Below, piece after piece: positions 1-46,600 of a stretch of 64,000 nucleotides of DNA. The notes below the pieces were generated by a model that searched no databases, had not been told where the DNA came from, and saw nothing but the letters and a program-made list of their open reading frames with translations. How positions within the stretch are numbered: the stretch's first letter is position 1; the number at the start of each line of letters is the position of its first letter. The position numbers and the translations under genes are program-made. This stretch comes from Escherichia coli (GTDB taxonomy: Bacteria > Pseudomonadota > Gammaproteobacteria > Enterobacterales > Enterobacteriaceae), in NCBI RefSeq assembly GCF_024700885.2, contig NZ_CP117016.1; one strand, given 5' to 3'.

Positions 1-256
1 GCATAGTGAAAACCAAAGTAAAGGTGTGCATTATGCAAAATCACAGCGTCTCTTAGAAATTAATCATGCGCACTTGCATTTAATGGAATTATTGGATGAA
101 GGGAAGAAACACAATATTTTTAAGGCAGATAGCGACCCATTGCAGGTGAATATTAATATTGCTGCGCTTGGGGGATATTATTTGATCAACCAGCATACGC
201 TTGGCCTGGTTTATCCAGTGCGCCGTAAAACCCCGTCCTTCAGGGCGGGGATATAA
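1..256 (+). CDS. 3' portion of a regulator-like gene entering from the window edge (possibly ytfA-like); last ~10 codons are encoded by the IS left-end hairpin
   Basis: Frame is open from position 2 with no upstream stop; ORF track lists 26..256; stop at 254-256 lies just after the hairpin at 231-250. Family assignment is a guess from the translated fragment. Confidence 0.35.
231..250. repeat. IS200/IS605 left-end subterminal imperfect palindrome (CCCCGTCC-TTCA-GGGCGGGG)
   Basis: 8-bp stem with one T-G mismatch and TTCA loop, read directly from sequence. Confidence 0.6.
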
Positions 257-271
257 GGCGCGGTTTTCCAC

Positions 272-703
272 CTAACCAGGTGTTTGCTGTTGTTCAATGT
301 ATTGACGGATGGCGGATATTGGCGCACCTCCGCAGCTACTGGCAAAATAGCCAGGACTCCACAAAACGCCTTTGTAGTAATACCTGACTGCAATATCTGG
401 TCGATCTCGTCGCAGTAACCTACTCGATACGCCTTTGAGGCTGTTTACCAGACTGGATATCGCCAGTTTGGGAGGATAGTTAATTAACAAATGGACGTGA
501 TCTGGTTCGCCATCCATTTCAACCAGTTCAGCTTCAAAATCAGCACATACCTTTGAAAAGTAAGTGCGTAGTTTTTCTTTCGCGTCATGGTCAAAAATCT
601 GGCGTCGGTATTTGGTGACAAAGACCAGGTGAACATGCATCAGGAAAACACAATGCTTTCCACGCCGGATATCGGTTTCTTTTTTCACAGACCAAAGTAT
701 CAT
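272..703 (-). CDS. tnpA: IS200-like Y1 (HUH) transposase TnpA
   Basis: 143-aa ORF with HVH motif (DHVHLLINYPP), KYRR motif and C-terminal catalytic-type Tyr (IRQYIEQQ); size typical of IS200 TnpA. Confidence 0.85.
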   Translation of the reverse strand: MILWSVKKETDIRRGKHCVFLMHVHLVFVTKYRRQIFDHDAKEKLRTYFSKVCADFEAELVEMDGEPDHVHLLINYPPKLAISSLVNSLKGVSSRLLRRDRPDIAVRYYYKGVLWSPGYFASSCGGAPISAIRQYIEQQQTPG

Positions 704-710
704 TTGACCT

Positions 711-1919
711 GTGAAACGATTACAGGCATTTAAATTCCAGTTAAGACCAGGTGGTCAACAGGAGTGTGAAATGAGGCGCTTCGCAGGCGCATGTCGTTTC
801 GTTTTCAATCGTGCTCTGGCGCTTCAGAATGAGAATCATGAGGCCGGTAATAAATACATCCCTTACGGGAAAATGGCTTCCTGGTTGGTTGAGTGGAAAA
901 ATGCCACTGAAACGCAATGGCTTAAAGATTCTCCCTCACAGCCATTGCAACAGTCACTGAAAGACCTTGAGCGGGCTTACAAAAACTTCTTCCGGAAGCG
1001 GGCTGCTTTTCCCCGATTCAAAAAGCGGGGACAGAATGATGCATTCCGCTACCCGCAGGGCGTTAAGCTCGATCAGGAAAACAGCCGTATTTTTCTGCCG
1101 AAACTTGGCTGGATGCGCTACCGGAACAGCCGTCAGGTCACGGGTGTTGTAAAAAATGTCACTGTCAGCCAGTCCTGCGGTAAGTGGTACATCAGTATTC
1201 AGACAGAAAGTGAAGTATCAACTCCGGATCACCCTTCAGCATCAATGGTCGGGCTGGATGCTGGCGTGGCTAAACTCGCCACGCTGTCAGATGGCACAGT
1301 CTTTGAGCCTGTAAACAGTTTTCAGAAAAACCAGAAGACGCTGGCGAGACTTCAGCGACAGTTAAGCCGCAAGGTCAAATTCAGCAACAACTGGCAGAAG
1401 CAGAAACGCAAAATACAGCGACTGCATTCCTGTATCGCAAATATCCGCAGGGACTACCTTCACAAAGTCACAACGACCGTCAGCAAAAACCACGCAATGA
1501 TAGTCATTGAGGATTTGAAGGTCAGCAACATGTCAAAGTCAGCAGCGGGTACGGTCAGCCAGCCGGGGCGCAATGTCCGGGCAAAATCAGGTTTAAACCG
1601 TTCGATACTGGATCAGGGCTGGTATGAAATGCGCCGCCAGCTTGAGTACAAGCAGCTCTGGCGTGGCGGTCAGGTGCTTGCTGTTCCGCCAGCGTACACA
1701 AGCCAGCGTTGCGCGTGCTGTGGTCATACAGCGAAAGAAAATCGCCTGTCACAAAGTAAATTCAGATGCCAGGCATGTGGATATACAGCGAACGCTGATG
1801 TAAATGGCGCTCGTAACATTTTAGCGGCGGGGCACGCCGTTCTTGCCTGTGGAGAGATGGTGCAGTCAGGCCGCTCGTTGAAGCAGGAACCCACCGAAAT
1901 GATTCAGGCGACAGCCTGA
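711..1919 (+). CDS. tnpB: TnpB (OrfB) RNA-guided endonuclease homolog, IS605/IS1341 type
   Basis: 402-aa ORF with RuvC-I (GLDAGV), RuvC-II (IVIEDLKV), Cys-rich zinc finger (CACCGH...CQACGY) and RuvC-III ([10 protein letters not shown]) motifs, all apparently intact. Confidence 0.9.
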
Positions 1920-1975
1920 ACGTAGCAGGGATCCACGTCCTTCAGGGCGTGGAGGATGTCAACATATCAGTATGG
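1780..1975 (+). ncRNA. Predicted omega-RNA (reRNA) scaffold plus flank-derived guide for TnpB (inferred, not demonstrated)
   Basis: By analogy with characterised TnpB systems, where the guide RNA derives from the tnpB 3' end and right end; the RE hairpin at 1932-1953 lies in this span. Confidence 0.25.
1932..1953. repeat. IS200/IS605 right-end subterminal imperfect palindrome (TCCACGTCC-TTCA-GGGCGTGGA)
   Basis: 9-bp stem with one T-G mismatch at the same relative position as in the left-end hairpin, same TTCA loop. Confidence 0.6.
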
Positions 1976-2053
1976 TTTCCCCCCAGGCACTGGAAGCCAG
2001 ACGTAAGGTCATCAAAGAGACGCTCCTTAGCTGGCTTTTGGTTGATTCTTCAT

Positions 2054-2728
2054 CTACCGCGCACGAATAAAACTGCCATCCGGCTGGCGGGTAAACAGGA
2101 CCTGTTGATTATTCCCCGTATCAATGGTTAAGCCCGTCACCACGCCGCTGGCGTTCTGGCGGATTTTCACCATCTGCCCGTTTTGCAAATTACTCAGCGG
2201 CTTACCCGCGCCTTCTACCTGCGCCATTGCATAGACATCGGTAGCGGGCAGTCCGTGGTCGCGGAACAGCTGCGCCATCGTTTTACCGGGTTCGACACGA
2301 TAGGAGCGCCATTGATTATCAATTCCGCTATCTGGCTGGAATGGTTGCGTTTGGGTGGTTTGCGGCTGCTCTTCTGGCTGGCCTTCCTGTATAGGTTCTG
2401 GAGCGAGCGGAGCCACCTGATCAGGATCATTTTGTGGCGTGACTAATTGCGCCCGCAGCTGTTCTTCTGTCGGTGGTTGTGATTGCGACTGAATATCTAA
2501 CTGTGCTTCACGCGTCACCACCGGCGCGTTGGGCGTATCATCAGATGGAAGCAGAAATCCGACCACCAATACAATGGCGGCAATAATGATCCCCCGACGA
2601 TGCATCTGCGGCAGCGGGTCCATGAAGCGAAAATTGTCCGGCGCGTGCCAGACTTTCTCCAGGGTTGGTTTTAGTTCAAAGCGCCCGGGCATGGTTTCCT
2701 CCTGCTCCGCGTCTTGTTCCTCAATCAT
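2054..2728 (-). CDS. ytfB: YtfB-like OapA-domain membrane protein (cell-division associated)
   Basis: 224-aa ORF with N-terminal TM segment, Pro/Gln-rich linker and C-terminal OapA-like domain; position next to fklB matches the E. coli gene order. Confidence 0.8.
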
Positions 2729-22405: not shown

Positions 22406-22657
22406 ATGCGTATTACCATAAAAAGATGGGGGAACAGTTCAGGTATGGTCATTCCTAATGTTGTGATGAAAGAACTTAACTTACGGCCGGGGCAGAGCGT
22501 GGAGGCGCAAGTGAGCAACAATCAACTGATTCTGACACCCATCTCCAGGCGCTACTCGCTTGATGAACTGCTGGCACAGTGTGACATGAACGCCACGGAA
22601 CTTAGCGAGCAGGATGTCTGGGGTAAATCCACCCCTGCGGGTGACGAAATATGGTAA
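22406..22657 (+). CDS. chpS: Antitoxin ChpS (ChpBI), MazE/AbrB-like
   Basis: Start at ATG (MRITIKRWGNSSG...) with AAGGAGG RBS about 5 nt upstream. Confidence 0.9.
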   Translation: MRITIKRWGNSSGMVIPNVVMKELNLRPGQSVEAQVSNNQLILTPISRRYSLDELLAQCDMNATELSEQDVWGKSTPAGDEIW

Positions 22658-23001
22658 AGAAAAGTGAATTTGAACGGGGAGACATTGTGCTGGTTGGCTT
22701 TGATCCAGCAAGCGGCCATGAACAGCAAGGTGCTGGTCGACCTGCGCTTGTGCTCTCCGTTCAAGCCTTTAATCAACTGGGAATGACGCTGGTGGCCCCC
22801 ATTACGCAGGGCGGAAATTTTGCCCGTTATGCCGGATTTAGCGTTCCTTTACATTGCGAAGAAGGCGATGTGCACGGCGTGGTGCTGGTGAATCAGGTGC
22901 GGATGATGGATCTACGCGCCCGGCTGGCAAAGCGTATTGGTCTGGCTGCGGGTGAGGTGGTGGAAGAGGCGTTATTACGTTTGCAGGCGGTGGTGGAATA
23001 A
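22651..23001 (+). CDS. chpB: Toxin ChpB (ChpBK), MazF-family endoribonuclease
   Basis: 116-aa ORF overlapping the chpS 3' end by 7 nt. Confidence 0.95.
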   Translation: MVKKSEFERGDIVLVGFDPASGHEQQGAGRPALVLSVQAFNQLGMTLVAPITQGGNFARYAGFSVPLHCEEGDVHGVVLVNQVRMMDLRARLAKRIGLAAGEVVEEALLRLQAVVE

Positions 23002-33828: not shown

Positions 33829-33961
33829 TTCCTTATTGGGCGGTGAAACGTTACCGCCCAACGCTTTCTTCTCCCTTCGTAAAATCACCGCAATATCTAT
33901 CTTCACCACGGCATATTCCTGCGTGTCGTCCTCATTTTTGCGAGGCGTTTTCCAGAAATGA

Positions 33962-33996
33962 ATGTAATGCATATGTAATGCTATAATGCATTACAC
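33962..33996. promoter_or_regulatory. Candidate operator/promoter of the relBE-like pair: repeated TGTAATGC motifs and palindrome TAATGCATTA overlapping a TATAAT -10 box
   Basis: Repeat motifs read directly from sequence 25-60 bp upstream of the antitoxin start. Confidence 0.4.
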
Positions 33997-34019
33997 TTTT
34001 CATAATTACCGGAGGCATA

Positions 34020-34262
34020 ATGGCCACACTTAACGTCCGCCTGGATGACAAACTGAAAAATGAGGCTTATGCGGTGCTGGAAAAATTAAATATCACGCCT
34101 ACTGAAGCAGTGCGACTGCTGTTTCAGTACGTTGCGGAAAATGGACGAATGCCGGTAAAAACGCTCACTGTCAGTGATAGTGAAGAAGCCTTGTTACGCA
34201 CTGTCAGGGAACGACTGGCCAACCCACAAGAGGCCATTAAGGTCCGACTGGATGAACTATGA
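34020..34262 (+). CDS. RelB/DinJ-family antitoxin (relB paralog)
   Basis: 80-aa ORF resembling E. coli RelB as I remember it; RBS GGAGG upstream. Confidence 0.8.
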   Translation: MATLNVRLDDKLKNEAYAVLEKLNITPTEAVRLLFQYVAENGRMPVKTLTVSDSEEALLRTVRERLANPQEAIKVRLDEL

Positions 34263-34542
34263 GCTGGCGTTTGATCCGCGGGCGCTGAAAGAGTGGCAAA
34301 AACTGGGCGTGACAGTCCGGGAACAATTTAAAAAAAAGCTTGAGGATGTGCTGAAAAGGCCGCGCAATCCATCGGCTAAACTGCGGGATTTACCGGACTG
34401 CTACAAAATTAAGCTGCGCACACAGGGATATCGCCTGGTTTATCAGGTTAACGATAAAGAGTTGCTCGTGTTGGTGATAGCTATTGGTAAGAGAGAGAAC
34501 TCAGCCGTTTATGAAGACGCGACTAAACGGCTGGATGAGTGA
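34252..34542 (+). CDS. RelE/ParE-family mRNA interferase toxin (relE paralog)
   Basis: 96-aa ORF starting at MNYELAFDPRALKEW..., overlapping the antitoxin by 11 nt; strongly RelE-like (PDCYKIKLR, GYRLVYQV motifs). Confidence 0.85.
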   Translation: MNYELAFDPRALKEWQKLGVTVREQFKKKLEDVLKRPRNPSAKLRDLPDCYKIKLRTQGYRLVYQVNDKELLVLVIAIGKRENSAVYEDATKRLDE

Positions 34543-35007
34543 CTAACGCAAATGATGCACCACCTGATTGCTGCTGCCGCGCCAGATCAGGGAAGGGTCT
34601 TTTAAATCCTGCACAAATTTGCCGTCGACCAGTACGTTAATCAAATCAACAACCTGCATTTGCGCAGCGTTGAGTTCGTCGAGTTTATAGCCTGTCCACA
34701 CCCAAATGTCTTTACCCGGACATTCGGCGCGGATTCGTTGTACCAGTTTCAGAATATCCGGCACGTTTTGCGGATGCAGCGGATCGCCGCCGGAGAGGGA
34801 AATACCCTGGCGTTTGATGCGAGTGTCATTCAGATCGTTAATGATCTGGTCTTCCATTGCTTTGGTAAATGGCTGACCGGAATTTACCCGCCAGGTGCTT
34901 TTGTTATAGCAACCGGGGCATTCATGAACACACCCGGAGACAAACAGGGTGCAGCGAGTGCCGGGGCCGTTGACGATGTCGACAGGATAGTACTGATGAT
35001 AATTCAT
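34543..35007 (-). CDS. nrdG: Anaerobic ribonucleoside-triphosphate reductase activating protein
   Basis: 154-aa radical-SAM activase ORF (CxxxCxxC region). Confidence 0.95.
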   Translation of the reverse strand: MNYHQYYPVDIVNGPGTRCTLFVSGCVHECPGCYNKSTWRVNSGQPFTKAMEDQIINDLNDTRIKRQGISLSGGDPLHPQNVPDILKLVQRIRAECPGKDIWVWTGYKLDELNAAQMQVVDLINVLVDGKFVQDLKDPSLIWRGSSNQVVHHLR

Positions 35008-42267: not shown

Positions 42268-44964
42268 ATGTTTAAAGAAATTTTTACCCGGTTCATTCGC
42301 CATTTACCTTCCCGTCTGGTTCATCGCGATCCATTGCCTGGCGCGCAGCAGACAGTGAATACGGCGGTCCCGCCGTCCTTAAGTGCGCATTGCCTGAAAA
42401 TGGCGGTGATGCCCGAAGAAGAATTGTGGAAAACGTTCGACACCCATCCGGAAGGATTAAATCAGGCGGAAGTGGAATCTGCCCGCGAACAACATGGTGA
42501 AAATAAATTACCCGCACAACAACCGTCGCCGTGGTGGGTACATTTATGGGTCTGCTATCGCAACCCCTTTAATATTTTACTCACCATTCTCGGCGCTATT
42601 TCTTACGCCACGGAAGATTTATTTGCCGCGGGCGTTATCGCGCTAATGGTCGCTATTTCTACGTTGCTGAACTTTATTCAGGAAGCACGTTCCACTAAAG
42701 CGGCAGATGCCCTGAAAGCGATGGTCAGCAATACTGCGACGGTGCTGCGCGTAATTAACGACAAAGGCGAAAATGGCTGGCTGGAGATCCCGATCGACCA
42801 GCTGGTGCCCGGCGATATTATAAAACTGGCGGCAGGGGATATGATCCCGGCAGATTTACGTATCTTGCAGGCGCGGGATCTGTTCGTCGCTCAGGCGTCG
42901 TTAACCGGTGAGTCTCTGCCCGTGGAAAAAGCCGCTACCACTCGCCAGCCGGAGCACAGCAATCCGCTGGAGTGCGACACGCTGTGTTTTATGGGCACCA
43001 CCGTGGTGAGCGGCACGGCACAAGCAATGGTGATTGCTACAGGTGCCAACACCTGGTTTGGTCAACTGGCGGGGCGTGTTAGTGAGCAGGAAAGCGAGCC
43101 GAATGCCTTTCAGCAAGGGATCAGCCGCGTCAGTATGCTGCTGATTCGCTTTATGCTGGTGATGGCTCCGGTGGTGTTGCTTATCAACGGTTACACCAAA
43201 GGTGACTGGTGGGAAGCGGCACTGTTTGCGCTTTCGGTCGCGGTAGGCTTAACGCCAGAAATGTTGCCGATGATTGTTACCTCGACGCTGGCGCGCGGCG
43301 CAGTAAAGCTGTCGAAACAGAAAGTGATCGTCAAACATCTGGATGCCATTCAGAACTTTGGCGCAATGGATATTCTGTGCACTGATAAAACCGGCACCCT
43401 GACACAGGATAAAATTGTGCTGGAGAATCATACCGATATCTCCGGTAAAACCAGCGAACGCGTGCTGCATAGCGCGTGGTTGAACAGTCATTACCAGACC
43501 GGACTTAAAAACCTGCTTGATACCGCGGTGCTCGAAGGTACGGATGAAGAGTCAGCGCGTTCGCTGGCCAGCCGTTGGCAAAAAATTGATGAGATTCCGT
43601 TTGATTTCGAGCGTCGCCGGATGTCGGTGGTAGTGGCAGAAAATACCGAACACCATCAGCTGGTTTGCAAAGGCGCATTGCAGGAAATCCTCAATGTGTG
43701 TTCGCAAGTGCGTCACAATGGCGAGATTGTACCGCTCGATGACACCATGCTACGTAAGATTAAGCGGGTTACTGATACGCTGAATCGTCAGGGGCTGCGC
43801 GTGGTTGCGGTTGCGACGAAATACCTGCCAGCGCGTGAAGGAGATTACCAGCGAGCGGATGAATCCGACCTGATCCTCGAAGGATATATTGCTTTCCTTG
43901 ATCCGCCAAAAGAGACAACTGCTCCGGCACTGAAGGCATTAAAATCGAGTGGAATTACCGTAAAAATCCTTACTGGCGACAGTGAGTTAGTTGCAGCGAA
44001 AGTGTGCCATGAAGTGGGGCTGGACGCGGGAGAGGTGGTCATTGGTAGTGATATTGAAACGCTATCTGACGACGAACTGGCAAATCTCGCACAGCGCACC
44101 ACGCTGTTTGCTCGCCTGACGCCGATGCATAAAGAACGCATTGTGACCTTACTGAAGCGCGAAGGGCATGTGGTTGGCTTTATGGGCGATGGTATTAATG
44201 ATGCGCCCGCCTTACGTGCTGCGGATATCGGCATTTCTGTGGACGGCGCGGTAGATATTGCCCGTGAAGCGGCTGATATCATCCTGCTGGAAAAAAGCCT
44301 GATGGTGCTGGAAGAGGGGGTTATTGAGGGACGTCGCACTTTCGCCAACATGCTGAAATACATCAAAATGACGGCGAGCTCTAACTTCGGTAATGTGTTC
44401 AGCGTGCTGGTGGCGAGTGCTTTCTTGCCCTTCCTGCCGATGTTGCCGTTACACTTGCTTATTCAGAACCTGCTGTACGATGTGTCACAGGTGGCGATCC
44501 CGTTTGATAACGTCGACGACGAGCAAATTCAAAAGCCGCAGCGTTGGAATCCGGCGGATCTGGGGCGCTTTATGATCTTCTTCGGACCGATCAGCTCGAT
44601 CTTCGATATTCTGACGTTTTGCCTGATGTGGTGGGTATTCCATGCCAACACGCCGGAAACGCAAACGCTGTTCCAGTCGGGCTGGTTTGTGGTGGGCTTA
44701 CTGTCGCAAACGCTGATTGTGCATATGATCCGCACCCGTCGTGTACCGTTTATTCAGAGCTGTGCATCGTGGCCGTTAATGATCATGACCGTGATCGTGA
44801 TGATTGTCGGGATCGCATTGCCGTTTTCACCGCTGGCCAGTTATCTGCAGCTGCAGGCGCTGCCGTTAAGCTATTTCCCGTGGCTGGTTGCGATTCTGGC
44901 AGGGTATATGACGTTAACCCAGTTGGTGAAAGGGTTCTATAGCCGTCGTTACGGCTGGCAGTAA
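42268..44964 (+). CDS. mgtA: Mg2+-importing P-type ATPase
   Basis: 898-aa ORF with DKTGTLT phosphorylation motif and GDGINDAPAL motif. Confidence 0.95.
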   Translation: MFKEIFTRFIRHLPSRLVHRDPLPGAQQTVNTAVPPSLSAHCLKMAVMPEEELWKTFDTHPEGLNQAEVESAREQHGENKLPAQQPSPWWVHLWVCYRNPFNILLTILGAISYATEDLFAAGVIALMVAISTLLNFIQEARSTKAADALKAMVSNTATVLRVINDKGENGWLEIPIDQLVPGDIIKLAAGDMIPADLRILQARDLFVAQASLTGESLPVEKAATTRQPEHSNPLECDTLCFMGTTVVSGTAQAMVIATGANTWFGQLAGRVSEQESEPNAFQQGISRVSMLLIRFMLVMAPVVLLINGYTKGDWWEAALFALSVAVGLTPEMLPMIVTSTLARGAVKLSKQKVIVKHLDAIQNFGAMDILCTDKTGTLTQDKIVLENHTDISGKTSERVLHSAWLNSHYQTGLKNLLDTAVLEGTDEESARSLASRWQKIDEIPFDFERRRMSVVVAENTEHHQLVCKGALQEILNVCSQVRHNGEIVPLDDTMLRKIKRVTDTLNRQGLRVVAVATKYLPAREGDYQRADESDLILEGYIAFLDPPKETTAPALKALKSSGITVKILTGDSELVAAKVCHEVGLDAGEVVIGSDIETLSDDELANLAQRTTLFARLTPMHKERIVTLLKREGHVVGFMGDGINDAPALRAADIGISVDGAVDIAREAADIILLEKSLMVLEEGVIEGRRTFANMLKYIKMTASSNFGNVFSVLVASAFLPFLPMLPLHLLIQNLLYDVSQVAIPFDNVDDEQIQKPQRWNPADLGRFMIFFGPISSIFDILTFCLMWWVFHANTPETQTLFQSGWFVVGLLSQTLIVHMIRTRRVPFIQSCASWPLMIMTVIVMIVGIALPFSPLASYLQLQALPLSYFPWLVAILAGYMTLTQLVKGFYSRRYGWQ

Positions 44965-45039: not shown

Positions 45040-45090
45040 TGAACTGCACCCCAAATGTTGGACATAATCTGACATCTGAAGGTGCAGTTT

Positions 45091-45612
45091 ATGAAACATT
45101 CATTTGAAGTAAAACTTGCCGCTGTAAATCATTACCTGGCTGGTCATGCAGGCATCATTTCTACGGCAAAACTCTTTCAACTTTCTCACACCAGCCTCTC
45201 ACACTGGATTAATCTTTTTCTTCTTCACGGTCCTCGGGCACTGGATTGCAGACACAAGCGTAGCTATTCTCCTGAAGATAAACTTTGCGTGGTTCTTTAT
45301 GCTCTCGGGCATTCTGAGTCTCTACCCCGGGTAGCTGCCCGGTTTAATATTCCCAGCCACAACACGGTTAAAAACTGGATAAAAGGCTACCGCAAATCTG
45401 GTAATGAGGCCTTTATCAGGCGCAGGAAGGAGAAAAGCATGACCCGTTCTGATGATACCCATGAAAACGAGGCAAACATGACGCCGGAAGAGATGAAGAA
45501 TGAGCTGCGTTATCTTCGCGCAGAAAATGCATATCTGAAAGCCATGCAGGAGCATCTCCTGGAAAAAAAGCGCCAGGAGCTGGAGAAAAAACGAAAGTCA
45601 TCCGGAGCCTGA
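45091..45612 (+). CDS. insJ: IS3-family transposase OrfA (InsJ-like, helix-turn-helix)
   Basis: ATG at 45091 with AAGGTG RBS; protein recognised as IS150 InsJ-like from memory; ends downstream of the slippery heptamer. Confidence 0.8.
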   Translation: MKHSFEVKLAAVNHYLAGHAGIISTAKLFQLSHTSLSHWINLFLLHGPRALDCRHKRSYSPEDKLCVVLYALGHSESLPRVAARFNIPSHNTVKNWIKGYRKSGNEAFIRRRKEKSMTRSDDTHENEANMTPEEMKNELRYLRAENAYLKAMQEHLLEKKRQELEKKRKSSGA

Positions 45613-45716
45613 GGTGCGGACACTGCCAGCCTGACCTGTTAAAGGCTGCAGGGCTGGCCAGAAGCACGCTGTACTACCAGCTGTCACTGCAGAAGGCTAA
45701 GGACAAGTATGCTGAT

Positions 45717-46471
<755 letters not shown>

Positions 46472-46600
46472 GTAAACGCCCAATCCGGCCTACAAATTCA
46501 ATAAATTGCAGGAATCACATAGGCCTGATAAGCGTAGCGCATCGGGCGATTTTGCTTTTGTCATCAGACTTAATCCGGGCATGATAGCCCGGATTTCCGT
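46472..46600. repeat. Remainder of the interrupted REP plus further REP-like units
   Basis: ACGCCCAATCCGGCCTACA... and GCCTGATAAGCGTAGCGCATC... between the IS and ridA. Confidence 0.5.

Follow-up and report, generated by a model that had tools for sequence, protein, structure and literature searches.

Ends, cleavage sites and guides of an intact IS609 copy in Escherichia coli

Close to one end of a 64,000-nucleotide stretch of Escherichia coli DNA (contig NZ_CP117016.1 of RefSeq assembly GCF_024700885.2; hereafter the window), two small hairpins have the same core, the same TTCA loop and a mispaired T at the same place in the stem. A sequence-only reading proposed that they are the ends of a functional IS200/IS605 element, and that imperfect palindromes with such a T are what the transposase TnpA recognises in single-stranded DNA. 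At this locus it may be asked whether the hairpins indeed are the ends of a mobile element and, if so, what the mispaired T means. Our answer to the first part is that window positions 215–1962 constitute a complete copy of the insertion sequence (IS) IS609, a member of the IS605/IS606-like subgroup of the IS200/IS605 family, and that the hairpins are its subterminal imperfect palindromes. We give this assignment a probability of about 0.92. It follows from the anatomy of the element, its ends, target site and protein families, the folding of the hairpins, and the complementarity of guides and cleavage sites, all of which are shown here. The hairpins are accordingly already known end structures of a known insertion sequence, and are nothing new in kind.

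Identity and boundaries of the element

The element and its two genes are laid out as follows.

215–1962, + strand: complete IS609-type element, 1748 bp; the + strand is the predicted active "top" strand
272–703, − strand: tnpA, Y1 HUH transposase, 143 aa, intact (Pfam Y1_Tnp; alignment with ISHp608 TnpA)
711–1919, + strand: tnpB (insQ), RNA-guided endonuclease, 402 aa, intact (Pfam domains; match to ISDra2 TnpB)

The limits 215 and 1962 are fixed by comparison with an empty site and with three independent insertion loci. The empty site (L001) reads ...GGTTTAT|CACATCAG..., while the occupied site in the window reads ...GGTTTAT[CCAGTG...GATGTCAA]CATATCAG..., the end of the IS being GGATGTCAA. 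At the three other loci, namely ydcL/ydcO in K-12 (L002), yedK (L003) and yidH (L004), TTAT is followed by CC(A/G)GTGCGCC and the element again ends in GGATGTCAA, with right flanks that are unrelated to each other. The empty and occupied sites differ by an insertion directly 3' of TTAT that leaves no target duplication, which is how IS200/IS605 elements insert. TTAT immediately precedes the element at all four E. coli loci and also in Klebsiella relatives. In the window (1–256 and 1963–2070), the insertion disrupts a TetR/AcrR-family regulator gene (ytfA-like) beside ytfB; in the empty-site strain 21F61 the regulator gene is intact and overlaps the end of ytfB.

The proteins are those expected of the family. 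TnpA matches the whole of the Pfam profile Y1_Tnp (positions 1–121 of 121, 147.8 bits, E 2e-43), and in the alignment with ISHp608 TnpA (2a6m, E 5e-20) both the HUH motif (DHVHLL) and the single catalytic tyrosine (RQYIEQ, opposite the Y127 region of ISHp608 TnpA) are aligned. TnpB, the accessory protein of the family with its RuvC and zinc-ribbon parts, has the Pfam domains OrfB_IS605, Cas12f1-like TNB and HTH_OrfB_IS605, and is a full-length homologue of ISDra2 TnpB (8bf8, E 5e-54, residues 3–376). A literature search on the function of InsQ/IS609 TnpB returned nothing specific. The two genes are divergent, their start codons lying 7 bp apart. The ends, CCAGTG... and ...GTCAA, have no inverted-repeat relation to each other; instead, a palindrome is present at each end, both on the + strand, as is typical of the family.

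The element is 98.1% identical to the K-12 copy of IS609 over 210–1965, with identical termini and the same TTAT and TCAA sites, and about 98% identical to other IS609 copies; the reference in this assignment is the K-12 copy and other E. coli copies, rather than the ISfinder entry. IS609 is placed in subgroup IS605c in PMC9956272, and its genes in K-12 are named insP/tnpA and insQ/tnpB. The divergent layout is shared as well, and nothing of substance differs, except that the K-12, E272 and CT29 copies are degenerate while tnpA and the hairpins are intact in the window. The gene names given by PGAP are "IS200/IS605-like element IS609 family transposase" and "RNA-guided endonuclease InsQ/TnpB", and the label is also given to tnpA at the same locus in other strains. 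By BLAST, the element is found in essentially every complete E. coli genome, and IS609 occupies roughly 14,000 places in E. coli genomes. Window positions 1–2400 are 100% identical to strain 1190, in which the tnpA of this identical stretch is labelled intact.

Hairpins, cleavage sites and guides

The functional parts of the two ends are the following.

211–214, + strand: TTAT, target tetranucleotide and left cleavage site (CL), in the flanking DNA outside the IS (four loci, Klebsiella, PMC9956272)
227–230, + strand: left guide (GL), AAAA, the four nucleotides (nt) 5' of the left foot (IS608 rule)
231–250, + strand: left imperfect palindrome (IPL), 8-bp stem with T236·G245, apex C-T-TC-A-G (sequence, folding)
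1929–1932, + strand: right guide (GR), GGAT (IS608 rule)
1933–1952, + strand: right imperfect palindrome (IPR), 8-bp stem with T1938·G1947, same apex (sequence, folding)
1953–1962, + strand: right linker AGGATG followed by the right cleavage site (CR) TCAA at 1959–1962, the last four nt of the IS (mapped ends, PMC9956272)

The left hairpin is CCCCGTCC-TTCA-GGGCGGGG (231–250), and the right one is T CCACGTCC-TTCA-GGGCGTGG A (1932–1953), of which 1933–1952 form the 8-bp stem portion. There are exactly two occurrences of the 14-nt core CGTCCTTCAGGGCG in the window, one at 234–247 and one at 1936–1949, both on the + strand, whereas shuffled sequence gives 0.47 matches to it with two mismatches tolerated. 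The two hairpins are the same at 18 of 20 positions, and the sole differences amount to one compensatory pair, C233–G248 on the left being A1935–T1950 on the right. In both stems the T·G wobble is the sixth pair from the foot (T236·G245 and T1938·G1947). The earlier claim of a shared core, a TTCA loop and a mispaired T in the same place at both ends is thus borne out by the bases themselves. The only other near match to the core, CGTCCTTAAGTGCG at 42374–42387, has two mismatches, lies within mgtA and forms no hairpin; it is a chance match.

Failure to fold stably as single-stranded DNA had been named as an outcome that would speak against the proposal. Both hairpins do fold, with energies of −6.5 kcal/mol (z −2.9) on the left and −7.1 kcal/mol (z −4.4) on the right, and both are kept in the minimum-energy and centroid folds when the flanking context is included. 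The fold of the left end has in addition an outer helix (220–224 with 257–261) and a small second hairpin (269–282). Read from the minus strand, the T·G turns into a C·A mismatch and the fold is altered. Among the six hairpins of such quality on the + strand of the window, only these two are strand-specific. With C in place of T at the wobble, each hairpin would be more stable by 3.5 kcal/mol.

The same proposal asked for a recognisable cleavage motif at a suitable distance from the hairpin feet. In IS608, the left cut is made on the 5' side of the foot at a distance of 19 nt and the right cut on the 3' side at 10 nt; both are specified by 4-nt guides located 5' of the feet, one A of the guide being inserted into the protein (PMC3201880). 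T-4 is matched by A+17 and T-3 by A+16, pairs that form triplets with A+42 and T+43 (PMC5934647), while the fourth guide base sets the base 5' of the cut (PMC3479197). We applied this rule in the form −4:G2, −3:G1 and −1:G4, with G3 being A (PMC5934647, PMC3479197, PMC3201880). In the window, the left foot has TTAT| on its 5' side at a distance of 16 nt, and the right foot has TCAA| on its 3' side at 10 nt, counted from G1952. On the left, TTAT and AAAA form three T:A pairs, that is, three of three Watson–Crick. On the right, TCAA and GGAT give C:G, A:T and a T:G wobble, that is, two Watson–Crick pairs and one wobble. The third guide base is A in both cases. At the level of sequence, the ends thus look as guide recognition would have them. 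Furthermore, the sites derived here agree with the published listing for IS609, which gives TTAT as the left and TCAA as the right cleavage site (Supplementary Table S1 of PMC9956272). Next to the left foot comes AT, as in IS608; the ATAT at 251–254 parallels the ATAC found 3' of IPL in IS608 (PMC3201880).

The guide rule also bears on the length of the right stem. An 8-bp stem is favoured because its guide, GGAT, fits the IS608 rule, whereas the 9-bp stem of the sequence-only reading would give GGGA, which fits worse. The comparison with IS608 points to 1933–1952 as the functional right stem of 8 bp, with T1932 acting as the fourth guide base and not forming a ninth stem pair.

IS608 (ISHp608) of Helicobacter pylori serves as the mechanistic model. 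The shared features are a Y1 HUH TnpA, subterminal hairpins on one strand, a left site outside the element, TCAA as the last four nt at 10 nt from the foot, 4-nt guides 5' of each foot with the pairing rule in common, and an A-T dinucleotide on the 3' side of the left foot. The differences are that the TnpA match is remote (E 5e-20), that the target is TTAT rather than TTAC and the left guide AAAA rather than AAAG, that the left spacing is 16 rather than 19 nt, that tnpA and tnpB are divergent rather than co-directional, and that the apical loop is TC rather than TT. ISDra2 of Deinococcus radiodurans has a TnpB that is homologous over its full length, the same right site TCAA and, in one natural left end, a CTTCAG apex; it differs in its pentanucleotide target TTGAT and in the stem sequence.

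Relatives were sought with the degenerate hairpin pattern CCNCGNCCTTCAGGNCGNGG in one genome per species. Such a scan gives many chance matches in GC-rich coding DNA, and TnpA or TnpB could be detected with the window proteins at 18 of 123 hits; the true IS ends come from Halorubrum, Halobacterium, Streptomyces, Pararhizobium, Treponema, Desulfobulbus and others. The boundaries of these elements were judged solely by where copies diverge. Among the 122 rows scored strictly by the guide rule (120 scan hits and the two window ends), the rule holds only where the right offset is 10 nt, with one stray at 11, or where the left offset is 15/16 or 18/19 nt. At 15–16 nt, the combinations TTAT/AAAA, TTAC/AAAG, TGAC/CAAG and TGAT/CAAA covary in relatives with the same hairpin, while the offsets of 18–19 nt belong to haloarchaeal elements. 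On the right, at 10 nt, TCAA/GAAT and TTAA/AAAT are found, the guide GAAT of the Klebsiella and actinobacterial relatives being that of IS608. That cleavage sites and guides change together in this way lends support to the mechanism proposed below.

E. coli, Klebsiella, Halorubrum, a Pseudomonas metagenome-assembled genome (MAG) and an actinobacterial MAG all have the 10-nt right linker AGGATGTCAA without any base change. Such conservation is consistent with a double constraint, imposed by TnpA and by the guide RNA of TnpB.

Some other elements of this type were noted in the same comparison. Salmonella and Klebsiella conjugative plasmids carry tnpA-less IS609-type derivatives of about 1.33 kb, arranged as left end, tnpB and right end (L128, L129, L130); both end hairpins are present in L129 and L130, while the hairpin scan found only the left one in L128. 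Altogether 2668 plasmid records contain matches to the element, and 1242 of these records are from Klebsiella. In Halorubrum (L017–L020 and L070), single hairpins have TTAT and AAAA as a left end does, 19 nt upstream, and AGGATGTCAA as a right end does. They look like the PATE elements with fused left and right ends described in PMC4615843.

By analogy with IS608 and ISDra2, the following mechanism can be drawn for IS609, in which binding by TnpA and the chemistry of cleavage are carried over from those systems. When the + (top) strand becomes single-stranded, for example as lagging-strand template, each hairpin would fold and be bound by one site of a dimeric Y1 TnpA. The guides AAAA and GGAT would pair with the TTAT outside the left end and with the TCAA of the last four bases, respectively, and in this way position the catalytic tyrosine. 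The top strand would then leave as a circle and re-enter 3' of another single-stranded TTAT, without target duplication. The GC skew is positive on the + strand in eight of eight bins, which would place the top strand on the lagging-strand template, the orientation that the family prefers. This skew and the strand specificity of the wobble offer indirect support for strand-specific "peel and paste" transposition through single-stranded DNA. The target-adjacent-motif and omega-RNA model of TnpB comes from ISDra2 (PMC8612924), and by the same analogy TTAT is predicted to be the target-adjacent motif of the IS609 TnpB. As RNA, the right hairpin and the linker AGGATGTCAA would be the 3' end of the TnpB omega RNA, with the flank after 1962 as guide. 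The excised donor site, that is, TTAT and its flank, could then be re-cut and the element regained by recombination.

The T·G wobble and the role of the hairpins as RNA

The second part of the question concerns the mispaired T. In all four E. coli copies that were read, T·G is at pair 6 of both ends. In Klebsiella plasmid relatives, which are 77–79% identical, the left end retains T·G at pair 6, while the right end, CCTCGCCC/GGGCGGGG, has C–G at pair 6 and T·G at pair 3. At the right end of a Pseudomonas relative the wobble is found at pair 5, and in many elements that share the hairpin the stem is perfect, with C–G at pair 6. Across true ends, in qualitative terms, T·G, which corresponds to a C-to-T change on the 5' arm, is common and C·A is rare. 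This bias agrees with a structure acting on the top strand or on its RNA. Of what had been claimed for the mispaired T, the classification of the hairpins as IS200/IS605 subterminal imperfect palindromes therefore stands, while recognition by TnpA of a T at a fixed position is unproven, considering the shifted wobbles in Klebsiella and Pseudomonas and the perfect stems. The wobble marks the working strand; it is most likely a tolerated C-to-T change and not a required contact.

A stronger role for the wobble was also considered, in which the T·G on the 5' arm is a selected feature that lets TnpA tell the top from the bottom strand, lets TnpB do so through a U·G pair in RNA, or tunes the stability for guide release, as a stand-in for the extrahelical T of IS608. 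The irregularity of the IS608 hairpin is an extrahelical T on the 3' arm rather than a wobble pair; the IS609 stem is GC-rich and has the T·G instead. The cost of 3.5 kcal/mol, the presence at both ends of every E. coli copy examined and the recurrence at varying stem positions speak for selection, but we regard it as unlikely. The apex is a better candidate for recognition than the T·G, because CTTCAG matches the TnpA-bound apical motif CTT(T/C)AG, which in the IS608 and ISDra2 complexes has a T·A Hoogsteen pair under a two-base loop (bioRxiv 10.1101/2024.12.22.630000).

An 8-bp stem with a UUCA loop is known as the "RE-like tetraloop" of tnpB 3' transcripts, HgcC RNAs and PATEs with fused ends, with a sotRNA example from E. 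coli K12; the HgcC, sot0042 and RAGATH-18 models are all tied to tnpB 3' transcripts (PMC4615843). All three give Rfam matches here.

1846–1889: RAGATH-18, 29.5 bits (gathering score 44.9)
1852–1975: HgcC, 24.6 bits (gathering score 50)
1792–1953: sot0042, 17.6 bits (gathering score 88)
1846–1982, + strand: predicted omega RNA, from the 3' end of tnpB to 1962 plus about 16–20 nt of flank as guide (sub-threshold Rfam matches, ISDra2 analogy), with a provisional 5' limit

These sub-threshold matches at the 3' end of tnpB probably outline the scaffold of the IS609 omega RNA, and the right hairpin, which the HgcC alignment puts on the terminal stem of that family, is predicted to be its last stem-loop. 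The likeness to the sotRNA, HgcC (RF00062) and PATE hairpins consists of the GC-rich 8-bp stem, the UUCA loop and the location at the 3' end of tnpB (PMC4615843). The HgcC consensus CCccCGcccUUuAgggCGggGAGGAGGUCAG aligns to 1932–1962, and Halorubrum copies have the identical AGGATGTCAA linker. These RNAs differ in that they are mainly from archaeal tnpB-only elements (IS1341-type), that their consensus has C–G where IS609 has T·G, and that their scores are sub-gathering here.

A rival reading is that the hairpins work chiefly as RNA, with the right one being the terminal stem of the omega RNA and the left one, on the minus strand, the tnpA terminator; the similarity of the two ends would then be secondary. 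This would account for the alignment of the right hairpin with the terminal stems of the HgcC and sot0042 RNAs (PMC4615843), and for the same hairpin being kept in TnpB-only elements. It would also suit the location of the left hairpin (227–250, minus strand) 21 nt beyond the tnpA stop and before TTTTAC. However, both ends have the T·G on the + strand, so that it would be a C·A in the minus-strand tnpA RNA, and the right hairpin lacks a T run. Moreover, guide and cleavage site are arranged at the left end in the complete geometry that is needed by TnpA only. We consider a mainly RNA-level function to be very unlikely, although RNA and DNA roles are compatible and do not exclude each other. On the minus strand, the left hairpin shows a weak terminator-like arrangement, with the guide AAAA doubling as a U tract. 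The terminator reading was rejected, as a scan for the terminator consensus called neither hairpin.

Mobility, remaining alternatives and the surrounding window

The preferred reading is that of a complete IS609 copy with its two subterminal imperfect palindromes, and a number of points weigh against it or against its mechanistic extension. The right guide pairs through one T:G wobble instead of T:A. Two left-end variants, in E. coli CT29 (L004) and on a Klebsiella plasmid (L127), have ATAT instead of AAAA, which breaks the guide rule. The comparison with IS608 is at the level of sites, guides and offsets as published. Every Rfam match is below its gathering score. Finally, 1699 of 5426 complete E. 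coli genomes share the interrupted ytfA-like::IS609 form and a single copy is found in the closest genome; the copy in the window may not have moved for a long time.

In the two variants (L004 at about 401–460, L127 at about 143–192), the ATAT makes CGCCTTATAT[hairpin]ATATAAGGCG a perfect extended palindrome. They could represent symmetrisation of the palindrome in inactive copies.

The distribution among genomes suggests the main alternative regarding function, namely that the copy is fixed, vertically inherited and effectively immobile, its hairpins being intact through low divergence and not through use. Besides the widely shared insertion, the visible decay of other E. coli copies agrees with this: tnpA is a pseudogene in three of them, and the hairpins are mutated as well in L002 and L003, with a G-to-A change in the left hairpin of the K-12 copy and C·A and T·T mismatches in L003. 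In the window, on the other hand, the two genes tnpA and tnpB are intact, as are the hairpins, guides and cleavage sites of both ends, and the occurrence of IS609 at several loci across strains and on many plasmids implies that the family has been mobile. Immobility is, on balance, rather doubtful. The earlier view of the element as functional and not a relic holds as far as the intactness of every part goes, which makes a functional copy plausible, and current activity can be suggested by analogy; mobility itself is only plausible, considering that the insertion is common to so many genomes.

It is also conceivable that the hairpins are REP/BIME-type repeats handled by a RAYT transposase, or terminators that are alike by chance. 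REP hairpins are abundant in E. coli, and other parts of the window give Rfam hits of the naRNA4/REP type. The REP/RAYT (TnpA-REP) system of E. coli also has imperfect hairpins, a 4-nt guide 5' of the foot and a Y1 HUH enzyme (PMC3479197). However, REPs have a GTAG guide, a mismatch bulge, a high copy number and no linked tnpB, and none of these features is seen here. The hairpin core, in contrast, occurs in the 64 kb exactly at the mapped IS ends and nowhere else, and is not accompanied by a GTAG guide of the E. coli REP kind (PMC3479197); the hairpins furthermore move with the element to other loci and species. This explanation is hardly credible. As candidates for REP/RAYT membership the hairpins were rejected, their guides being AAAA and GGAT rather than GTAG or GTGG and their two copies both being IS ends.

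The use of these results is mainly in annotation, as they define exactly where the intact IS609 in the TetR-family gene beside ytfB begins and ends, which target site and guides it has, and which strand is the active one. They also show that IS609 fits the IS608 rule for guides and cleavage sites, with compensating base changes, and they call for caution in that the T·G wobble should not be taken as a proven recognition element. As a copy with both tnpA and tnpB intact, the element could be a native E. coli model for the interplay between TnpA and TnpB.

Some other features of the window can be mentioned. An IS3-family element is located at 45040–46512, between mgtA (42268–44964) and a ridA-like open reading frame, with orfA (HTH_28/HTH_Tnp_1) at 45082–45612 and orfB (rve) at 45717–46439, both on the + strand. 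In strain 1190, which is otherwise 98–99% identical, the same intergenic spot is occupied by IS621 of the IS110 family; the spot between mgtA and the ridA-like frame has thus been hit by two IS families. A RelB antitoxin (34020–34262) and a ParE/RelE-type toxin (34174–34542) are encoded between cybC and nrdG, and the corresponding segment of about 0.7 kb (33838–34546) is missing from strain 1190. A chpS/chpB pair is found at 22406–23001.

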